DNA from: a virus
Taxonomy: Duplodnaviria; Caudoviricetes
Virus record (IMG/VR): IMGVR_UViG_3300021399_000118
Span: 1-64,000 of that record
Length of the DNA stretch: 64,000 nt
Strand: one strand, 5' to 3'
Shown one piece after another: positions 782 through 17,038 of this stretch. The position numbers and the translations under genes were made by a program. The notes under the pieces were generated by a model, which saw nothing but the letters and a program-made list of their open reading frames with translations, did no database searches and was not told the DNA's origin. Each line of letters opens with the position of its first letter. The first letter of the stretch is position 1.

Positions 782-1270
782 TTACTCACCCAACCTTTGG
801 AAGAGATCGAAGTAATCCTTGCGAGTGTTCTCGTCGGCGATGCGCTGAGTCTGCTCCTGGGCCGCGGTTTCCTTCTGCTCCTGCAGGAAGCACTCCACAT
901 CCATCTTGATATCGCAGGGCTCATCCTCATCGTAAAGCTCGGTCTCTTCGAGAACATCAATCTCGTTGTTCTGAATCCAGACCGTAGCGCCGATATGGGC
1001 ATGTTCCAGCTCCCAGCGAGCCTGATCGGCATCGCTTTCGCGCATTTCGTAGGCATAATCACGAATATAATTTTCTTCGTCGCTAAATTGCTCGACGATA
1101 TCGGAAGCATCATAATCATGGCCTCCGATGTTGAAGCTGCCGTATTTGTTATTGAGCCATTCGTAGAGACCGTCATAGTCTTCTTCGTAATACTCTTCAG
1201 TACAACAGGTATCCAAGACCTCGTCCACATCCGTCGTGTCGAGCTCCAGAGCTTCGCAAACGTATCGCAT
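782..1270 (-). CDS. hypothetical acidic phage protein
   Basis: ORF; start moved to ATG at 1270 after AAAGGAG RBS because the longer start overlaps a tRNA-like RNA. Confidence 0.75.
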   Translation of the reverse strand: MRYVCEALELDTTDVDEVLDTCCTEEYYEEDYDGLYEWLNNKYGSFNIGGHDYDASDIVEQFSDEENYIRDYAYEMRESDADQARWELEHAHIGATVWIQNNEIDVLEETELYDEDEPCDIKMDVECFLQEQKETAAQEQTQRIADENTRKDYFDLFQRLGE

Positions 1271-1288
1271 TGAAATCTCCTTTTCTAT

Positions 1289-1400
1289 AATCTGCGGGTC
1301 AGGATTTGCACCTGACATGACAGCCTGCCGTTTTCAGTGCTTTATCGGCTGCCCACCACCTTGTTGCTCGCTGTGTCTACCTTTTCCACCACCGCAGATT
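1289..1400 (-). ncRNA. tRNA-like RNA (acceptor, D-arm and UGCAAAU T-arm; no canonical anticodon arm), copy 1
   Basis: AATCTGCGG...CCGCAGATT 9-bp closing stem; TGGTGGAAAAGGTAGACAC D-like arm; GTCAGG-TGCAAAT-CCTGAC T-like arm; homologous to 9936-10052. Confidence 0.65.
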
Positions 1401-2928: not shown

Positions 2929-3225
2929 TTAAGCGCAAAGATCGTCAATCGTAATGTTCATTATCTGCAGCAGGACATTCATTTTTCTTTCGGACGGAAC
3001 GGCTTTGAACAGTTCATATTTGCTGATGTCCATTTCGCTGACTCTGATTCCTCTAAGCGTTGCAATATTTGCAAGCTGCTTCAAAGAGAGGTTGTTGATT
3101 CTCCGATAGGACCGGAGAAAGATGCCGAACTCAACCTGCCGGCGACTGAGAACCTGGAAATCAGTCATGTAACGATTTCCGTGCCTGGGGCCTGTTATTA
3201 TTCTTCTTTCAAAAACTACTTTCAT
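2929..3225 (-). CDS. XRE-family helix-turn-helix protein
   Basis: FGIFLRSYRRINNLSLKQLA...ISKYE...PS....LLQIMNITIDDL. Confidence 0.8.
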   Translation of the reverse strand: MKVVFERRIITGPRHGNRYMTDFQVLSRRQVEFGIFLRSYRRINNLSLKQLANIATLRGIRVSEMDISKYELFKAVPSERKMNVLLQIMNITIDDLCA

Positions 3226-3557
3226 TGCCAGCCCTCTAACAATACGTTTTCATATTCCTCAGCCGACACGGAAGCAAGGCGGTTTCTTGTGGCTGACGTC
3301 ATGTATCTCGGATCCCAAAGCCAGGAATATTTGATGTCCCCGGCAAGAAAAACATTTTTTGCCATTCCATGCTGAATAGGACAGACTCGATAGCGCACAG
3401 GACGATCGTTGATTACGTTCAAAACAACGGCGATCTTTCTATTCAATGTACGCATAGGCCAATCGGACCATTCGCCGCAGAAACTATTTTTCTCCTCTTC
3501 TGTCTCAGGAATCTGAAGATAAACCAAATCTCCTTTTGAAAATACTTTTTCTTCCAT
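3222..3557 (-). CDS. tagged paralog, class A (SH3/KOW-like), copy 9
   Basis: FSKGDLVYLQIP...GEW...M...WLWD...VSAEEYENVLLEG. Confidence 0.8.
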   Translation of the reverse strand: MEEKVFSKGDLVYLQIPETEEEKNSFCGEWSDWPMRTLNRKIAVVLNVINDRPVRYRVCPIQHGMAKNVFLAGDIKYSWLWDPRYMTSATRNRLASVSAEEYENVLLEGWQ

Positions 3558-3559
3558 GT

Positions 3560-3835
3560 TCAGCCCTCAAACAGAATATTTGCGTATTCTTCATTTGAAA
3601 CATTGTTGTTAATATGGTCCATATAATTTTTATTCCACCATAGATTAACAGGATGCGGCTGATCCGGGTTGACCTTAACATAGTTGGTATGATCACGTCC
3701 GCCATCCTTTAAAATCAGCGCATGGCGACCATCATATGGCCGCATTATCTCAACCCACGGGCCAAACTCTTCTTCTTCGGCCTTCGTAGAAGGAGCGCGA
3801 AGCAGCACCAACTCGCCTATTTCAAAATTATTCAT
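3560..3835 (-). CDS. tagged paralog, class A, copy 8
   Basis: FEIGELVLLRAP...WWNKNYM...VSNEEYANILFEG. Confidence 0.85.
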   Translation of the reverse strand: MNNFEIGELVLLRAPSTKAEEEEFGPWVEIMRPYDGRHALILKDGGRDHTNYVKVNPDQPHPVNLWWNKNYMDHINNNVSNEEYANILFEG

Positions 3836-3837
3836 GC

Positions 3838-4167
3838 TTAGCCCTCGAACAGGACGTTCTCATACTCATCATCGGAAACATCTTCAGTTTGGGTTACCAG
3901 ATCCATATACTCAGGATCCCACCACCAGGTATCAAAGGGCTCATGTTCTTCTGCTTCGATTTCTTCCTGAATTCTTTCGTAGTCCTCCAGATGGCAAATC
4001 TGATAAATTAAAGATCCGTCGTACATGCGCTTATTAAGAACTCTTGCTATTGTTCCTTCGTACGGCCGCATATACGGTTCATTCCATCCCGCGCTGAATT
4101 TATCTTCTCTTTCCGGAGCCCGAAGAAAAACGAGATCATTTACTTCAAATGTTTTCGCTGTTTTCAT
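3838..4167 (-). CDS. tagged paralog, class A, copy 7
   Basis: FEVNDLVFLRAP..GW..M..YEG...WWWDPEYM...VSDDEYENVLFEG; ATG 4167 after GAGGG. Confidence 0.85.
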   Translation of the reverse strand: MKTAKTFEVNDLVFLRAPEREDKFSAGWNEPYMRPYEGTIARVLNKRMYDGSLIYQICHLEDYERIQEEIEAEEHEPFDTWWWDPEYMDLVTQTEDVSDDEYENVLFEG

Positions 4168-4169
4168 TG

Positions 4170-4475
4170 TCAACCCTCAAACAGAATATCGGCATATTCT
4201 TTCTCGGATACTTCTTCAATATCGAGCAAAGGTTCTATATAATTCTTATCCCACCACCAATAATCATGAAACCTTCTTACTTTGTCGTACATTTCCGGAA
4301 GGCATACCATGTATCTGTCCTGTTGGAAGCCTTTCTCCAAGATGGCCGCTGTTTTTCCTTCCCATTTAGGCATTTGGTCATCTCTCCAGCCGCCCTTAAA
4401 ACATTCTTTTTCGATTTCGGTATGGGGAGCCCGAAGCCTGACAAGATCTCCGGGCTGATATTCATCTTGCCACAT
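4170..4475 (-). CDS. tagged paralog, class A, copy 6
   Basis: YQPGDLVRLRAP...GW..M..WEG...WWWD...VSEKEYADILFEG. Confidence 0.85.
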   Translation of the reverse strand: MWQDEYQPGDLVRLRAPHTEIEKECFKGGWRDDQMPKWEGKTAAILEKGFQQDRYMVCLPEMYDKVRRFHDYWWWDKNYIEPLLDIEEVSEKEYADILFEG

Positions 4476-4481
4476 TATCTT

Positions 4482-4817
4482 TTAACCCTCGAACAGCACA
4501 TTTACGTACTCTTCATTTGAAACTTCTTTTGTCTGCGTTGCCGGACTCATAAACTTAGGATCCCACCACCAATAATCGTCCAGATTAAGCCAGGCAATCA
4601 GATCTTCATAGTCATCCGCGTCTTCGTCATAGTTTTCCTTAAGGCAAACAAGATAGCCGATCCCAGGGTCTTTCTTGAGAACACGGCAGATCCTGTTGTC
4701 CCAAGCTCTCATTTCATCTTCATTCCAGCCAGCATAGAACTCCATTTCTTCCGTTTCGTCCGCGGGAGCCCGAAGAAGAACATAATCTCCCAGGCAATAT
4801 TCAGTTGTGTTTTCCAT
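4482..4817 (-). CDS. tagged paralog, class A, copy 5
   Basis: YCLGDYVLLRAP...GW..MRAW...WWWDP...VSNEEYVNVLFEG. Confidence 0.85.
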   Translation of the reverse strand: MENTTEYCLGDYVLLRAPADETEEMEFYAGWNEDEMRAWDNRICRVLKKDPGIGYLVCLKENYDEDADDYEDLIAWLNLDDYWWWDPKFMSPATQTKEVSNEEYVNVLFEG

Positions 4818-4819
4818 TT

Positions 4820-5116
4820 TCAGCCCTCGAACAAAATATTCGCATATTCTTCGTTAGAGATTTCTTTCATATCGGAGGCCAGATCCATATAGGACATATC
4901 CCAGGACCAATAATCATCATAGTGACGGAGAGTATCATATTTTTCCGGAAGGCAAACGCGGCAATAGTTACTTCCAACATAAAGAATCCTTGCAGTTTCT
5001 CCTTCCCAGGCTCGCATATGTTCTTCGTTCCAGCCGCACTTAAAGGCATTCATTTCAATTTCTGAATGCGGAGCCCGAAGATAAACATAATCTCCTACTT
5101 CGTAAGATGTTTTCAT
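4820..5116 (-). CDS. tagged paralog, class A, copy 4
   Basis: YEVGDYVYLRAP...GW..MRAWEG...WSWD...ISNEEYANILFEG. Confidence 0.85.
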   Translation of the reverse strand: MKTSYEVGDYVYLRAPHSEIEMNAFKCGWNEEHMRAWEGETARILYVGSNYCRVCLPEKYDTLRHYDDYWSWDMSYMDLASDMKEISNEEYANILFEG

Positions 5117-5118
5117 TG

Positions 5119-5430
5119 TCAACCCTCAAACAAAATATTCGCATATTCATCCTCAGATATTTCTTCGAGCTGAGTTATATTGTCTATGTATTTCGGATCC
5201 CACCACCAACTGTCAAGAGGTGTTTCTTCCTGCGTCTCTTTGTCTATCTCGATCTCGTCCAACGGGCAAACGAGGCAAGTGCCCAGAGAATTTACTTCTA
5301 AAACTTTTGCAATTTTCCCATTCCAGGGCCCCATGCCATCTTGGTACCAGCCGGTGCAAAAGTCTTTAATTTCTTTAGGCGTTGCCGGAGCTCTCAGGCA
5401 AACAAGGCTTCCTTTTTCAAATTTTTTCAT
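5119..5430 (-). CDS. tagged paralog, class A, copy 3
   Basis: FEKGSLVCLRAP...GW..M..WNG...WWWDP...ISEDEYANILFEG. Confidence 0.85.
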   Translation of the reverse strand: MKKFEKGSLVCLRAPATPKEIKDFCTGWYQDGMGPWNGKIAKVLEVNSLGTCLVCPLDEIEIDKETQEETPLDSWWWDPKYIDNITQLEEISEDEYANILFEG

Positions 5431-5433
5431 TTT

Positions 5434-5733
5434 TTAACTCTCAAATAAGACGTTCGCATACTCTTCATCGGACACATCTTTTGATTCAGGAACCGATTCC
5501 ATAAAGCGAGCGTTCCACCAGTAGGTAGTAGGCCACTCCTTTTTCGGATAAAGGCAAACCATATAACGATCCGGGAAAGCTTCGCTTTGCTGGATGACTT
5601 CCGCGAGCCTGCCTTCCCACGTACGCATTCCATCCTCGAGCCAGCCGCTCGTAAAATACTTTTCTTCCTCCGACGCAGGGGCAATAAGCCGAACAATCTG
5701 TCCTGCTTCAAACCATTCTGTATATTCTCTCAT
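5434..5733 (-). CDS. tagged paralog, class A, copy 2
   Basis: FEAGQIVRLIAP...GW..MRTWEG...YWWN...VSDEEYANVLFES. Confidence 0.85.
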   Translation of the reverse strand: MREYTEWFEAGQIVRLIAPASEEEKYFTSGWLEDGMRTWEGRLAEVIQQSEAFPDRYMVCLYPKKEWPTTYWWNARFMESVPESKDVSDEEYANVLFES

Positions 5734-5735
5734 TT

Positions 5736-6026
5736 TTAACCCTCGAAAAGGACATTTGTATATTCCTCGGCTGAGACTTCTTTCATCTCATAGAAATGGT
5801 CCATGTAATTGATGTCCCACCAATATTTTCTATTAGATGTAATCCCCTGGCTCGTACACGGTTTCACCTGGCATCTGGTAGAGAAAGAAGCATCTAAGAC
5901 TTTAGCTTTCAGTCCGACCCATTCACGCATTCCGCTTTCAATCCAGCCGCCACGAAACTCCTCCTGGTCTCTGTTCGTAACCGGACCCCGAAGAATTACG
6001 ATGTCCCCATTGTTAAAATCATGCAT
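5736..6026 (-). CDS. tagged paralog, class A, copy 1
   Basis: FNNGDIVILRGP...GW..MREWVG...YWWD...VSAEEYTNVLFEG. Confidence 0.85.
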   Translation of the reverse strand: MHDFNNGDIVILRGPVTNRDQEEFRGGWIESGMREWVGLKAKVLDASFSTRCQVKPCTSQGITSNRKYWWDINYMDHFYEMKEVSAEEYTNVLFEG

Positions 6027-6037
6027 GTTTCACCTCG

Positions 6038-6247
6038 TTATTTGACGGCCAACATAATCTTTTCCGTAAGCTTGAGCAGAGCCTGGGTATATGTCAGCAC
6101 ATAGCGGCCCCAATAATAATCTTCTCCGTCCTTGCAGTGCCAAACGACATACTGATCGAAACAGTTGCGGCCGATCACGATCTCCAGCCGGTCATCCAGA
6201 GGAACGGAGACGATAATCTCATATCCTTCATTTGTACGCATTTTCAC
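6038..6247 (-). CDS. small hypothetical phage protein (no tag)
   Basis: ORF coupled to its neighbours; QYVVWHC...YYWGRY motif. Confidence 0.75.
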   Translation of the reverse strand: MKMRTNEGYEIIVSVPLDDRLEIVIGRNCFDQYVVWHCKDGEDYYWGRYVLTYTQALLKLTEKIMLAVK

Positions 6248-6543
6248 TCTCCGAACAAAATTGATTCAAATTCCAGAATGCTTATTTCTTCGTTCTGCGC
6301 CTGAGGAACAACCTGGTCTTTAGTCCACAAATAATTTTCGATTATGTCATTCCCAAACTGAGATCTTTTCGGTTTCACCGGTTTCAGCTTCAACATTGTT
6401 CCGGTAACTTTTTCTACAACACACAGCGTTCCGTCGTAATCGATCAACGGACAACGATTCATTATTGTTTTTTCCGGAGCAACTGCCCTGTAATGGTCGG
6501 CTGAAATGAAAACGTAATCTCCTTTTCTGTACATTTCAGTCAC
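6244..6543 (-). CDS. tagged paralog, class B
   Basis: GDYVFIS.D.Y...IDYDGT.C...KLKPVKP..S.F...NYLW; tail ISILEFESILFGE. Confidence 0.8.
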   Translation of the reverse strand: MTEMYRKGDYVFISADHYRAVAPEKTIMNRCPLIDYDGTLCVVEKVTGTMLKLKPVKPKRSQFGNDIIENYLWTKDQVVPQAQNEEISILEFESILFGE

Positions 6544-6824
6544 CCCGCAAAAAGGACATCCTCAAACTCTTCTGTTTCGATTTTTGCGGCCGGATATTCA
6601 AGAGCTTCCTCCGGCCAGAGAAAATTATTAATCGGAGGATTATCAAATGATGATACTCTCGGCTCGACAGGCCTGAGTTTGAAGTTAGATTTGTTCTCTA
6701 TACGGACAATCTCACATTCCGTATGATCGTAGTCGCAAATGGCGCTTCTTTGATCAGGCTTAATGTTTGTTTTATCCAGATATTTGTCGAGAGAGATGCG
6801 AACAATATCTCCAACGTTAAACAT
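6540..6824 (-). CDS. tagged paralog, class B
   Basis: FNVGDIVRIS.D.Y...CDYDHT.C...KLRPVEP..S.F...NFLW; tail IETEEFEDVLFAG. Confidence 0.8.
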   Translation of the reverse strand: MFNVGDIVRISLDKYLDKTNIKPDQRSAICDYDHTECEIVRIENKSNFKLRPVEPRVSSFDNPPINNFLWPEEALEYPAAKIETEEFEDVLFAG

Positions 6825-7248
6825 GTTCTTCCTCCCCTATCAGGACAGAGAGATATTCACTGTCAGTCATAGCCGACATTAATTTTTTCTCTTTATATGC
6901 GTCGATAAATTCTCTGGCTGAATAGGAATATACCATATCAGATTTTATAGATCCAAACAGCGCAGGTTTTCCAATACCATTCAGAGTTTGATCTAAAGGT
7001 TCGAAACAATGATATGGGCCGGACCCGTCCGCGAGCAAATAAGCAAGTGGGCTTGTCTTTGTGTCCATCCACGGCCATTTTTCGAATACAAAGCCGTCCT
7101 CCGTAAGAATATCGTACACCAAAACGATGTCGTCTTTTTCCCTTTTATCGAGACAGATATACGCTATCCCCTTGAAAAAGTTGCAAATCATTTCGTCGAT
7201 TCCCGGAGCCGGGGCTTCTGTTTCGTTGTGTTTTGTTATTACGAGCAT
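6817..7248 (-). CDS. tagged paralog, class C
   Basis: Similar to 7239-7649 (FF.G..Y...DK, YL..DG.GPYH.F); tail MTDSEYLSVLIGE. Confidence 0.75.
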   Translation of the reverse strand: MLVITKHNETEAPAPGIDEMICNFFKGIAYICLDKREKDDIVLVYDILTEDGFVFEKWPWMDTKTSPLAYLLADGSGPYHCFEPLDQTLNGIGKPALFGSIKSDMVYSYSAREFIDAYKEKKLMSAMTDSEYLSVLIGEEEHV

Positions 7249-7649
7249 TGCTCACCTCCAAGAAGAATATCCAGATACTCTTCTTCTTTGCAGTCAGAAA
7301 CACGTGGAAGGTGCAATATTTGCGCAGTTGTGTATATACGAGGAACATAAGGACAGCCGTGGCGAATATCGCCTGTACTTCTTCCAGTCACCATATTCTT
7401 TTCTGTTCTGAAGAAATGATAAGGGCCTGTATCTTCATCCATAAGATAGTCTTCAAGGCTATAGTCGAGAAAAGATGCATTATAGGCCCAGTCTTTTACT
7501 CCATATTCCGTAAGAAGCTTTGCAAGTTCTGCAGTTTCCTTAGGGTTGTCTTTATCCACATGAAAGTAGACCCAGCCGGAGAAAAACTGCTGCATTGCCT
7601 CGTCGAGGGTTTCAGCGTCTTTCATCTGGCTATAAACAACTTCAAGCAT
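7239..7649 (-). CDS. tagged paralog, class C
   Basis: Similar to 6817-7248; tail CKEEEYLDILLGG. Confidence 0.75.
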   Translation of the reverse strand: MLEVVYSQMKDAETLDEAMQQFFSGWVYFHVDKDNPKETAELAKLLTEYGVKDWAYNASFLDYSLEDYLMDEDTGPYHFFRTEKNMVTGRSTGDIRHGCPYVPRIYTTAQILHLPRVSDCKEEEYLDILLGGEQCS

Positions 7650-8871: not shown

Positions 8872-9345
8872 TTACCTCCTCACAATGTACACATCCATAT
8901 CGGAGAAAGCAGAATCTATTGCAGTGCTTACCGCGTTCCAGTCTCCGTTCGCCAGTCCGCAGCCAATCCCATACGGGAAAGCAACTGTTTCATTCGGACG
9001 GATTCTTTTTCGCAGGGTTCGCAGTGCAGCATAGAGTGCAGAGTACCGGGTATAGAGCTTATCTTCCCGGCCGAAGTCATACTGTCCGAAGAGGTTCACT
9101 ACGTATTGCGTCTTTCTCATGTCGATCATGTCCCCTACGGGGACAATCTGACATTTACCCAGACGCCTTTCCAGAGGGATGTTCTTGCAGTATTCGCGAT
9201 ACTGCGCTTTTACAGTCGGCCACTTCAAAGCAATCTGCTTTGCCAGGCCAGCACCCATCACGCCCATGCAGTTTACCTGCTGGCAGATATAGGTCGCAGG
9301 AAAGTTCAGCAGGTCACCAGTCTTATAGATCAGCAAAGCAGTCAC
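8872..9345 (-). CDS. macrodomain protein (TARG1/DarG-like ADP-ribose hydrolase)
   Basis: GDLL..ICQQVNCMGVMGAGLAKQI..KWP; VVNLFGQ; AFPYGIGCGLANGDW. Confidence 0.9.
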   Translation of the reverse strand: MTALLIYKTGDLLNFPATYICQQVNCMGVMGAGLAKQIALKWPTVKAQYREYCKNIPLERRLGKCQIVPVGDMIDMRKTQYVVNLFGQYDFGREDKLYTRYSALYAALRTLRKRIRPNETVAFPYGIGCGLANGDWNAVSTAIDSAFSDMDVYIVRR

Positions 9346-10114: not shown

Positions 10115-10186
10115 AGCCGACGACAGGAATCGAACCTGCAACCTGCTGATTACAAATCAGCCGCACTACCGTTGTGCTACATCGGC
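10115..10186 (-). tRNA. tRNA-Thr(TGT)
   Basis: GCCGATG TAGCACAACGGTAGTGC G GCTGA TT[TGT]AA TCAGC AGGTT GCAGG TTCGATT CCTGT CGTCGGC T. Confidence 0.9.
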
Positions 10187-10350: not shown

Positions 10351-10423
10351 CCAGCCCCGGATGGAGTCGGACCATCACATACGGAGTCAAAGTCCGTTGC
10401 GCTGCCGTTACGCTACGAGGCTA
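10351..10423 (-). tRNA. tRNA-Gln(TTG), atypical T-loop TCCGACT
   Basis: TAGCCTC GTAGCGTAACGGCAGCGC A ACGGA CT[TTG]AC TCCGT ATGT GATGG TCCGACT CCATC CGGGGCTG. Confidence 0.8.
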
Positions 10424-14368: not shown

Positions 14369-16792
14369 TTAGTCTTCGTCGTCATCATCTGCAAAGAGGT
14401 CAGCGAACTCTTCGGAATCGAAGTCAGGAATCGTGCGATCCAGGTTCTTTTTCAGAACCTGAACCGCCTTGTCACCGTAGATCCGCCAGAAGGCCTGTTT
14501 GATTACCGTGTCGTAACCTTCAGTCGCTTTAGTTACTCGAACATTGAAAATGTTTCGAGCGACGATGTCGTAGCAGGCATCGTCGATTTTGTCATCTTCG
14601 ATGTTCAACTCGGGATACCGAGACCTGGCCCAAGAGATGATTTCTTTGCGGGCTGCCTTGCCCACCTCTTCCTCCCACTCGCGACGCTCCTGAGCCTTGC
14701 CATCGCTGGCAACGAGGAGCTTCCATTCTTCAGAGTGCCGGAAGGCGATCTCCTGGAAGACGCCGGCTCCAACAGAGACACGATTCTCGTTGTCCCAGGT
14801 TCCCTTCCGGGACAGGCCGGCCAGGTTACCGATCTTCCTGTTGGGGTTAATCAGCAGCTTGGTGGAATCGAAGATCTCGCTTTCGATTCCGTCGACGGTC
14901 AGCTTTTCCGGAATCTCTTCACGGATCAGCTTGGAATACTGATCCAGGAATGAGCCGGTATAGGCGCAGCGAGGAGGAAGCTCTTTCCCGGACCGGCTGA
15001 TCCTGGGCGCAGTCCAGTACTCAGTCTCGGCAGGATGCTCCATGTCGGCTTTTGCGTACATCGCGAACAAAGGAAGAGACTTCCTGTCAAGTTCGCGAAC
15101 GGCGTCGGGCTTCACGATCTTTACAGATGCGTGCTTTGCCGCATCAATTAATACGTTGCCGGCATAAGTCAGCCAGTTGCAGACCGACTTGTCGTAGCCG
15201 CTGTTCCACATCTTGGTCAGCGCATCGGCATACAGACCGATCTCGGACCCATGGATCAGATTTACAATGAAGCCGGCAATCGCCGACCTGGTAATCGCAA
15301 CCTTCTGCGAAGACGCGACATCCCAGTCGATCGGGATGTTCTTCAGCGTCTCATATGTGCGCTTTACGAGGTCGAGGAGGTTGGTGTCTTGGGAGAACCA
15401 AACGTGATCTCCGTCGTAGTCGCAACGAAGACGTATTGTCGTCATATCCCAGATGTTAATAAACATCGTGGGCGTATTTCCCACGAAGACCATTTTCCGC
15501 ACATTGTTCAGGAGAACATGCGCGTTGTCCAAGTGGGGATTACGTGTTACATCGACCAGGCCAAGGTCGATAGATGCACAGGCACACTCTCCTGCTTTCA
15601 ACATTCCTTTGATCTCGAGACCGAAGAGGTGCTCGGCAAAGGCTTTCAGATCGGGAGCGATGAAAGCGTTATATCCCAGCTCCGGAATGCGGCCTCCCTT
15701 CATATCGTTTATTTTCGTCTCGTATTTCTCCTGAATCGCCCGCGCCGTGTGCGGCTCGTTGAGAAGAGCCGGATACAGCTTGGCTGCGGCTCTCTGGCTG
15801 CCGCTAAGAAGCTTAACGGCGTTCTTGGGATCGGTGTACTGATGCACCGTCCGCTTGGCGTGGTTCATAAAATGAATCGCGTCGTCGGTGGTGCCCATCA
15901 GGGTCTGGCCCTGCTGATAGGGCATTCCCTTCAGCTTGGCTCCGTGTTCCCTGACGCAAACCGCAAGCTCATGACCGAGCTCTTCGAAAGCGCTGCAATA
16001 CTGCTCCCAACTGGAATACAGTTTTGCTGTCTTAAAGCAAGACTCTGTCAAAATCATATCGACATCCTGGAGGTTTACCTTGTTCCCCCAGAAGTCAATA
16101 AAGCTCGGTTCAATGCCGCGGCTCTTGCAGAAGTCCGCAAGCGAACCAAAGTCGACGGCCTGCACAAAGGCCTTAAGCCAAGGCCCGCGGATTGTGCAGG
16201 ATTCTCCACGAGTAACAACCCGATTGACAATGCCGAATCCATCAAATGCGTTAATCCGCACTTTACGGATACGGTTAAAGAGAATGTTGTCTCCGGCAAC
16301 AATGTCCGCAACCGCTTCGATTTCGACTTCGGCGTCTTTGATGATCGCCACGCGACGGATGTCAAGACCCTTGCCGAATACTTCGGCAAAGGGTCTGCTG
16401 GCCGACATGAGCAAACCAATATAGCTCATGTACTTATTAATCGCGAGCTTCATCTCGCTCGTCTTAAGACCGCACATGGCCCACTTTCCAAGCTCAGCCT
16501 GAAGACTTTCGAGAATCCAGGTTGTGACGGCCTTGCGGATGTCGGAGGCACCTGCCATGAACGGAACGTAGGTGTTGCCGTTGTGAATGTAGCCGTTGGC
16601 GACCATGTTCGTGAGTTTTGCACGAATCAAAGATTCGAGTTCTTCGTCCTTAGGACATTCAGCACAGATTTTGACAATAGCGTCTTTGGGGTCAACGCCC
16701 ATTTTGTCGAGTTTCCGGATAAAGGAGCTCGTAAAGATGGTGATTTCTTCGATGACGCTATTCAACAGGTTGATCTTTTCGATAGTCTTCAT
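14369..16792 (-). CDS. single-subunit two-barrel RNA polymerase, YonO/RdRP-like (807 aa), putative non-virion RNAP
   Basis: Ordered motifs AFDGFG, IRGPWLKA, ILTESCFK, PYQQGQTL, G..AFIAPD, TRNPHL, RCDYDGD (15407-15421), IG...T, IDAAKH; GGAGG RBS before ATG 16792. Confidence 0.88.
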   Translation of the reverse strand: MKTIEKINLLNSVIEEITIFTSSFIRKLDKMGVDPKDAIVKICAECPKDEELESLIRAKLTNMVANGYIHNGNTYVPFMAGASDIRKAVTTWILESLQAELGKWAMCGLKTSEMKLAINKYMSYIGLLMSASRPFAEVFGKGLDIRRVAIIKDAEVEIEAVADIVAGDNILFNRIRKVRINAFDGFGIVNRVVTRGESCTIRGPWLKAFVQAVDFGSLADFCKSRGIEPSFIDFWGNKVNLQDVDMILTESCFKTAKLYSSWEQYCSAFEELGHELAVCVREHGAKLKGMPYQQGQTLMGTTDDAIHFMNHAKRTVHQYTDPKNAVKLLSGSQRAAAKLYPALLNEPHTARAIQEKYETKINDMKGGRIPELGYNAFIAPDLKAFAEHLFGLEIKGMLKAGECACASIDLGLVDVTRNPHLDNAHVLLNNVRKMVFVGNTPTMFINIWDMTTIRLRCDYDGDHVWFSQDTNLLDLVKRTYETLKNIPIDWDVASSQKVAITRSAIAGFIVNLIHGSEIGLYADALTKMWNSGYDKSVCNWLTYAGNVLIDAAKHASVKIVKPDAVRELDRKSLPLFAMYAKADMEHPAETEYWTAPRISRSGKELPPRCAYTGSFLDQYSKLIREEIPEKLTVDGIESEIFDSTKLLINPNRKIGNLAGLSRKGTWDNENRVSVGAGVFQEIAFRHSEEWKLLVASDGKAQERREWEEEVGKAARKEIISWARSRYPELNIEDDKIDDACYDIVARNIFNVRVTKATEGYDTVIKQAFWRIYGDKAVQVLKKNLDRTIPDFDSEEFADLFADDDDED

Positions 16793-17038
16793 ATTACTGC
16801 CTCCTGCTTGTTGTTGGGTCAAGCTCCCATTATATTTGGGCAACCAAGCCTCTTGGGATAGAGGCGCAGCGTTTACTGACGCTTTGCAACTCCCGGCTGA
16901 TTCCGGAAGGTACATTAAAGGAGCGTTAGGCGGCTCAAACCTTTATCGAACTCTCTTGCGGCGATAAACCCGCAAAGCCGCTTGCCACGGCGAGGCCTGC
17001 AATCGAACGTATTGCAGAACGCCTGAGGATGTGTTACA

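Follow-up and report, generated by a model that had tools for sequence, protein, structure and literature searches.

In the genome of an uncultured phage of the Caudoviricetes, thirteen small proteins encoded side by side (3222-7649, minus strand) end in one and the same short acidic-hydrophobic peptide, which is carried on bodies of unrelated fold. The window analyzed here comprises the first 64,000 nucleotides of the IMG/VR record IMGVR_UViG_3300021399_000118. The whole record (G000) is a linear sequence of 120,915 bp, with a completeness of 86% according to CheckV. DNA related to it is found in sheep, goat and bovine gut metagenomes, and related loci and contigs (L001, L002, L007, L008 and L010-L021) were used for comparison. 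Taken as a whole, the evidence points, with slightly more weight for than against, to a constant docking helix carried on diversifying bodies.

The shared C-terminal tail

All thirteen open reading frames (ORFs) to which the original prediction, made from the sequence alone, had assigned a common C-terminal motif are present on the minus strand where it had placed them. Each of their products ends in the pattern [VI]-[ST]-x-E-[ED]-[YF]-x-[NDS]-[VI]-L-[FLI], followed by 2-6 further residues; this tail is also referred to here as the tag, and proteins that carry it as tagged. Nine of the products belong to class A, two to class B and two to class C, and one untagged ORF lies within the array (Table 1). 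The genes are tightly packed, with gaps of 2-11 nt or overlaps of a few bases, and the 13 are translationally coupled. When standard helix-capping rules are applied to the motif, the tail reads as a capped amphipathic helix, in which [VI] at N' and [YF] at N4 would form a hydrophobic staple and [ST]-x-x-E a capping box. The hydrophobic face would be made up of [YF], [VI] and L, with a Gly often capping the C-terminal end.

A position-specific scoring matrix (PSSM) was built from the tags and scanned against 173,338 positions, representing all ORFs of 11 loci. Strong matches, defined as those of at least 17 bits, numbered 32, and 30 of these were situated within 10 residues of a C-terminus, a test of position that is partly circular because the matrix was trained on C-terminal tags. 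The array tags themselves score 19.6-30.8 (n = 13) against a background maximum of 13.5, where the background is the best score per internal 24-residue segment (n = 650). The recurrence of the motif in the array is far above chance. Among all tagged proteins, 0-9 residues follow the motif, and the last residue may be G, S, Q, E, V, N, D, F, L or A. In L011 (4968-5600, plus strand), a class A barrel and a class C-like domain are naturally fused into one protein with a single, terminal tag, which is preceded at a distance of a few residues by the degenerate tag-like sequence ITIEDFLSAM; the internal tail has been lost and the terminal one kept.

Further tagged genes occur in G000 outside both array and window, at 95260-95556 and 99796-100062, with PSSM scores of 22-24 against the same background maximum. 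Together with the array and an acidic protein discussed below, at least 16 tagged genes are present in this genome. The membership of a non-virion RNA polymerase of the YonO/RdRP type is uncertain: its C-terminus reads as a weak tag-like helix that runs into a poly-acidic tip, and its PSSM score of 13.3 merely equals the background maximum. RdRP-type polymerases of uncertain orthology encoded in L015-L017 end otherwise (Cys-rich, ...ET).

Selection on the tail

The tail had been proposed to be conserved as protein despite synonymous change, and the codons of the nine class A paralogs agree with this. Over 11 tag codons, the proportions of synonymous (pS) and non-synonymous (pN) differences are 0.91 and 0.16, and over the nine conserved tag codons they are 0.96 and 0.10. 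Because the synonymous sites are saturated, recent gene conversion among the class A tags is disfavored. Between G000 and its close relatives L001 and L002, pN/pS is 0.06 in the tails (5 non-synonymous versus 20 synonymous changes), 0.31 in the bodies and 0.09 in the flanking genes. The tail is the most constrained part of these proteins, and the bodies are the least constrained genes of the neighborhood.

Conservation at the level of DNA only, through an overlapping ribosome-binding site or recent gene conversion, is extremely improbable in view of these figures. The last two class A codons, GAG GGY, do form the Shine-Dalgarno sequence of the next gene, 6-9 nt before its ATG, and their pS is only 0.44. 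The overlap accounts for these last two residues alone, however; the other 11 codons are synonymously saturated (pS 0.91-0.96) with the protein conserved, and dispersed tagged genes, as well as distant phages with other tail ends, keep the motif without a ribosome-binding site junction. The original prediction had itself raised the overlapping ribosome-binding site as a possible explanation, and beyond the last two residues it was rejected on the codon data.

The bodies and their folds

Both of the AlphaFold2 (AF2) models discussed here are of single chains and were derived from shallow alignments of 15-20 sequences. In the model of class A member 4, residues 8-84 mostly have a predicted local distance difference test (pLDDT) score above 90, and the tail (residues 87-101) falls below 50. 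The closest structures found with VIA-align are the Mib repeats of Mind bomb (4xi6, Z 8.7, root-mean-square deviation 2.4 over 68 residues; 4tse, Z 8.4), after which come KOW, Tudor, L21e and PsaE-type barrels at Z 6-7. Foldseek (E about 0.02) and the neighbors in the ESM Atlas (MIB1/MIB2) are in weak agreement with the Mind bomb repeats. The class A body is thus modeled as an SH3-like five-stranded barrel with these repeats as its nearest relatives, in line with the suggestion that classes A and B are barrels of the SH3, KOW or Tudor type.

Sequence profiles lead to the same family. An exhaustive hidden Markov model search with a class A/B profile returned 42 proteins, including about 28 small homologues, five multi-repeat proteins and three matches set aside as spurious (P0015, P0017 and P0025, which are SprB, PKD and InlB repeat proteins). 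The five multi-repeat matches are SH3_15 proteins according to Pfam (E 6.6e-6 to 7.8e-4), and when the A/B family was aligned to one SH3_15 repeat (P0030) by hhalign, a match of 89.5% probability (E 2e-6) was obtained over 65 columns, spanning body residues 5-81 and ending before the tail. The Pfam SH3_15 model (PF18346) itself gave no match at E<=1 for ten array members, and none anywhere in the genome. Because profile homology is present but the Pfam model finds no match, classes A and B are designated, from profiles and models, remote SH3_15-like barrels with an appended tail. They have in common with the Mind bomb SH3 repeat a fold and a remote sequence similarity, and differ from it in being single-domain proteins with an extra linker and C-terminal helix outside the SH3_15 alignment.

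Class C has a different architecture. The model of class C member 2, from an alignment of 20 sequences, contains an alpha/beta body (residues 12-115, pLDDT 75-92), a linker at 120-122 of pLDDT below 50, and a helix at 122-129 (pLDDT about 54) that coincides exactly with E-E-E-Y-L-D-I-L. No fold match to this model was found in the PDB (best Z 2.6), and hhalign of the A/B profile with that of class C aligned only the last 26 columns. Because the two profiles align in the tail only and the class C fold differs, the tail sits on two unrelated folds. A modular tag, and a class C unlike classes A and B, had both been anticipated from the sequence. The N-termini of class C proteins often resemble the C-terminal tag (e.g. 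M-T-I-E-E-F-L... in member 2 and its homologues, alignment A7), which may reflect either a frequent way of starting a helix or mimicry of the tag in cis.

Were the tail a structural element acting in cis, such as a lid or an autoinhibitory helix, no common partner would be required. The helix predicted for the class C tail and the similar T-I-E-E-F-type helix start at the class C N-terminus are compatible with such a role, but it is quite improbable given that the motif recurs on two or more unrelated folds as well as on numerous other bodies, and that the fusion of classes A and C retains one terminal tag only. In both AF2 models the tail is of low confidence, rather than an integral helix of one shared known fold. 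Standalone phage SH3_15-like clusters also exist (81-85 aa, with C-termini uninspected) that are about one tail shorter than class A.

Distribution and genome-specific flavors

Among the matches listed, all distant class A homologues except P0029 carry the tail, and class C homologues likewise carry it. Other tagged bodies include a 72-aa family, proteins of 88-162 aa unlike classes A, B and C, and an acidic protein of 153-178 aa. Such bodies occur in L008, L010-L013, L015, L017 and L019-L021, mostly as neighboring genes. After removal of the last 20 residues from 46 tagged proteins, BLAST sorted the remaining bodies into 19 groups, which were merged by judgment into at least eight body types. 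As far as these sequences go, the tail is a clade-wide, position-locked module.

The motif also varies in flavor from one phage to another, reading EEYxN[VI]LFEG in G000, EDF[DN]SILN in L008, EDDLMS[LM]F in L017 and E[ED][ED]-hydrophobic-x-x-[IL]L in L020. The likeness of tags on different bodies has a mean of 21.4 within a genome and 15.3 between genomes (permutation p <0.0002), and for one body type compared across genomes the mean is 20.2.

A partner within the array would account for such flavors, as would be the case if the tails were to bind each other or the array bodies, such as the SH3-like barrels through their aromatic face, to generate a hetero-oligomer or scaffold. SH3 and Mib-repeat domains do bind peptides (4xi7 is a peptide complex), class A retains its W-W-W-D..Y-M patch, and nearly every tagged locus also has an SH3-like member. 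This last association is biased, however, in that most loci were found by a class A search, and the tagged protein of L018 has no SH3-like gene in the 10 kb upstream. Moreover, AF2 does not dock the class A tail on its own barrel, and mutual binding of this kind is considered distinctly unlikely.

Searches of the array members against Pfam and PHROGs gave nothing below E 0.04, and the proteins of their context are mostly without matches as well. No match was found in a phage GenBank collection by blastn and tblastn, and neither pattern scans of IMG/VR (for class A, the A5 subgroup and the E2-like protein described below) nor a scan of GTDB genome contigs returned relatives. In the published literature, no account was found of this motif, of these families or of their association with a phage ubiquitin-like (Ubl) operon, nor was a description found of adaptor sets like these in the Ubl systems of bacteria or phages.

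Association with a Ubl operon

Besides class A, L011, L013 and L014 share with G000 only three genes, all at the far end of the contig, which encode a putative Ubl-fusion protein, an E2-like protein and a putative JAB protein (Table 1). These are followed by a ThiF-type E1 (Pfam ThiF, E 1.3e-22), for which PDB matches include Uba5, MoeB, MccB and Cap2; its assignment as a ThiF/Uba5/Cap2-like enzyme is confirmed by these sequence matches. A ThiF-type E1 adenylation domain is thus present in the phage operon as it is in Bil and CBASS operons of the Cap2-Cap3 type. The putative Ubl domain of the fusion protein ends not in Gly-Gly but in N-A-A, which is invariant in 7/7 homologues (alignment A9) and is likely a processing or activation site.

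The tagged genes lie close to this operon in two phage clades. In the clade of L013 (L007, L011, L013, L014 and L021), they stand immediately before the Ubl gene, the Ubl and E2-like genes are separated by one for a tagged acidic protein, and in L021 a further tagged class C-like gene lies between the E1 and a reverse transcriptase. The G000-clade loci L015-L020 were found by means of the E2-like protein and are therefore unbiased for tags. Their gene order runs from the tagged genes through two helix-turn-helix (HTH) genes, an SSB gene, a tagged acidic protein and a gene of ~118 aa to the Ubl, E2-like, JAB and E1 genes. In L015 and L017-L020 the tagged genes are situated 1-10 kb upstream of the Ubl cluster, and within 10 kb upstream at least four are found in L015, at least seven in L017, at least five in L019 and at least eight in L020. 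In G000 itself they would lie ~1-8 kb upstream of the cluster, provided that the two contig ends adjoin, as the gene order of L015 and L017-L020 suggests.

The acidic protein noted above (782-1318 in the window) is a constant member of this neighborhood. Its homologues are encoded one gene upstream of the putative Ubl gene in the G000 clade and, as stated, within the operon in the L013 clade; by hhalign, the versions from the two clades are homologues (95%, E 1.8e-8), and the tag-like helix at the end is always kept in both. The 178-aa protein has no family match, and conceivably it either mimics DNA or is a central partner of the Ubl operon.

Several points weigh against a docking tail that serves the Ubl operon. 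The synteny is suggestive only, as guilt by association within one phage lineage: all loci derive from ruminant-gut phages of ~116-131 kb, and their gene order may simply be inherited. L018 has just one tagged gene in the 10 kb upstream of its Ubl cluster, and L016 possesses the Ubl operon, but the flanking 10 kb on each side contain no tagged gene. The E2-like and JAB proteins were assigned from sequence motifs, and neither has a sequence match in Pfam or the PDB. With respect to the tail itself, its low pLDDT stems from shallow alignments (15-20 sequences) and is no proof of disorder, and the genome-specific flavor could also have arisen from host-specific partners or from old recombination between tags.

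Candidate partners of the tail

The selection acting on the tail, its position and its genome-specific flavor together suggest that it binds a partner, for which the chances are judged to be rather better than even. Under the docking reading, the array would encode accessory phage proteins built on one plan, each with an independently folded, fast-evolving body, a flexible linker and a short acidic amphipathic helix. Among the bodies would be SH3_15-like barrels, a novel alpha/beta domain and several further types. The helix would be pre-formed or strongly nucleated without being part of these folds, and would act in trans as a common docking motif, through which a wide range of bodies could reach a single partner or be acted on by it. 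Because this partner would differ slightly from phage to phage, it is probably encoded by the phage itself.

Recruitment to a hub by an acidic-hydrophobic C-terminal tail is well known, as exemplified by clamp-binding tails, SSB-Ct and the SspB XB peptide. Like QL[SD]LF, the tails of T4 gp43, gp55 and gp33, SSB-Ct (DDDIPF) and SspB XB, the tag is a short C-terminal peptide on a flexible linker that is common to unrelated proteins. It differs from them in lacking a Gln or a Pro-Phe end, in forming a putative capped helix, in being followed by up to 9 residues and in having a flavor of its own in each phage. Some distant tails (...SFDLVFG) may resemble the clamp-binding tail of T4 gp43.

In keeping with these parallels, the tail could engage a conserved hub of the host cell, for instance RNA polymerase, the beta sliding clamp or an AAA+ protease (or the adaptor of one), or it could be a degron that sets when early proteins are removed; the array does share its early/replication-type operon with genes for SSB, a Macro domain protein and HTH regulators. 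Such a target is nonetheless unlikely. When the clamp motif QL[SD]LF is aligned on its Leu-Phe to the L-F of the tag, the tag position opposite the Gln is variable (D, E, A or N), and the tags end in LFEG, ILN, LFE and the like instead of the Pro-Phe or Pro-Tyr of the SSB tip DDD[IL]PF. The SSBs of related phages end in ...LPF, ...VPF or ...VPY, unlike the tags, and that of G000 ends in ...EEGLY. Variation in flavor from phage to phage would be unexpected for a very conserved host pocket, and no DnaN is encoded on the contig (86% complete), although the host clamp would still be a possible partner. For a degron read from a free C-terminus, the variable last residue and the 0-9 residues past the motif are a poor fit, and fixed final residues, as in ssrA-like degrons, are absent from the tags.

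An SSB-tip-like end does occur elsewhere in this phage group. An 84-aa protein of the variable region of L017 (3582-3836, plus strand) ends in ...LNLDELPF, and a second kind of C-terminal docking tail may thus be present.

Short tags on unrelated cargo are also the rule in the capsid-targeting sequence of T4 internal proteins and the cargo-loading peptides of encapsulins, and the tail might by analogy be a packaging signal for loading into the capsid or virion and co-injection. The tag shares with these systems the placing of one short peptide, as an address label, on unrelated small proteins; theirs are N-terminal (T4) or rich in Gly, Ser and Leu (encapsulin) and are encoded with structural genes. 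The array belongs to the divergent, non-structural arm, where genes for replication and regulation are also located, the tag is neither on nor beside any structural gene, and no protease site is evident. A packaging role is accordingly held to be improbable.

The leading candidate for the partner is instead the neighboring conjugation module of Ubl-fusion, E2-like, JAB and E1 proteins, an assignment drawn from sequence and gene order that is offered tentatively and is, overall, less likely than not. The tagged proteins would then be substrate adaptors or substrates of the module. In its most specific and more doubtful form, this proposal holds that they are interchangeable substrate receptors, or designated substrates, of a phage Ubl conjugation machine, with each body recognizing a different protein of the host or of a rival phage and the constant helix coupling it to the Ubl module. 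The combination of a variable binding domain with a constant docking element is also seen in F-box and SOCS-box substrate receptors, an analogy without homology, and the synteny of tagged genes with a Ubl/E1 operon would similarly recall ligase-receptor and Ubl-interacting systems. The tail core [ED][ED]-[YF]-x-x-[VI] also fits, in most tags, the LIR/AIM pattern of acidic residues and [WFY]-x-x-[LIV]; this pattern is low in information, and in some phages the aromatic residue is replaced by L, I or M.

Other readings were considered and discarded. The conserved C-terminal Gly that is adenylated by E1 in ubiquitin and in the CD-NTase tails of CBASS has no equivalent, as a Gly near the end is frequent in G000 only. 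Tails as E1-activated ends were rejected on the ground that the last residue is not conserved, related phages ending in N, D, E, F or L. A likeness to double-glycine leader peptides and to UIM/SIM motifs was also dropped, the position or pattern being wrong.

Setting of the array

On the coding strand within the array, a consensus scan gave no terminator and no strong promoter. For this reason the array looks like part of one long operon that continues into two HTH genes, an SSB gene and beyond, although the evidence for this is weak. Five short contigs from the metatranscriptome of the source sample map in or beside the array, four of them ~100% identical and one divergent. One equals 3565-3715 in class A member 2 at 100% identity and another covers 4826-4998 in class A member 6; each constitutes weak evidence, and because the library possibly contains DNA, no claim of expression is made from them.

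The number of class A genes varies between close relatives. G000 has nine, and L002 has eight, one of which arose by recombination between the last two. In L001 there are seven intact copies and one truncated copy, as well as a member that is absent from the G000 set. The untagged 69-aa gene within the array gave no match in family searches. A look-alike of its N-terminus, recognized by eye, is encoded at L015 5804-6010, where it too adjoins a B-like gene.

Just upstream of the array, at 8872-9345 (minus strand) of the window, a Macro-domain protein is encoded, and relatives have Macro, NADAR and YAcAr genes in the corresponding variable region. This suggests a role for these genes in the reversal of ADP-ribosylation or in counter-defense. 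Three tRNA genes (Rfam RF00005) lie on the same strand as the array, at 323-395, 10115-10186 and 10352-10422 of the window.

Table 1. Array genes and associated features of G000. Coordinates are those of the window unless marked G000.
Feature	Position	Strand	Length (aa)	Remarks
Acidic protein	782-1318	-	178	very acidic, conserved; ends in tag-like helix KDYFDLFQRLGE
Class A member 1	3222-3557	-	111	tail VSAEEYENVLLEG then WQ; PSSM 28.3
Class A member 2	3560-3835	-	91	tail VSNEEYANILFEG
Class A member 3	3838-4173	-	111	long acidic loop; L001 orthologue only 68% identical
Class A member 4	4170-4475	-	101	class A protein modeled by AF2
Class A member 5	4482-4817	-	111	no counterpart in L001
Class A member 6	4820-5122	-	100	
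Class A member 7	5119-5430	-	103	
Class A member 8	5434-5733	-	99	tail end FES
Class A member 9	5736-6026	-	96	
Untagged gene within array	6038-6247	-	69	orthologues 97-99% in L001 and L002
Class B member 1	6244-6543	-	99	divergent SH3-like body; tail ISILEFESILFGE
Class B member 2	6540-6824	-	94	tail IETEEFEDVLFAG
Class C member 1	6817-7248	-	143	tail MTDSEYLSVLIG then EEEHV
Class C member 2	7239-7649	-	136	modeled by AF2; tail EEEYLDILLGG then EQCS
RNA polymerase, YonO/RdRP type, non-virion	14369-16915	-	848	Pfam RdRP match; C-terminus ...FDSEEFADLFADDDDED
Putative Ubl-fusion protein	G000 120165-120872	-	235	one of three shared genes
E2-like protein	far end of G000 contig		472	NPH...C string readable; one of three shared genes
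Putative JAB protein	far end of G000 contig		273	JAMM-type H-x-H-x7-S-x2-D string; one of three shared genes

Significance

The motif, the protein families and the phage clade have no match in Pfam, PHROGs, the phage GenBank set or the literature searched, while the principle of routing proteins to a hub by a shared tail is already known. The locus provides a clean system, from an uncultured phage, for testing how one constant address works on variable heads, and it comes with natural controls in the form of copy-number variation, a fusion protein and genome-specific flavors of the tag. If the tagged proteins do serve as receptors for the Ubl machinery, they would represent a viral, prokaryotic analogue of the F-box-type adaptor families. 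The array also offers a concrete lead that could reveal what phage Ubl systems do and how their targets are chosen.

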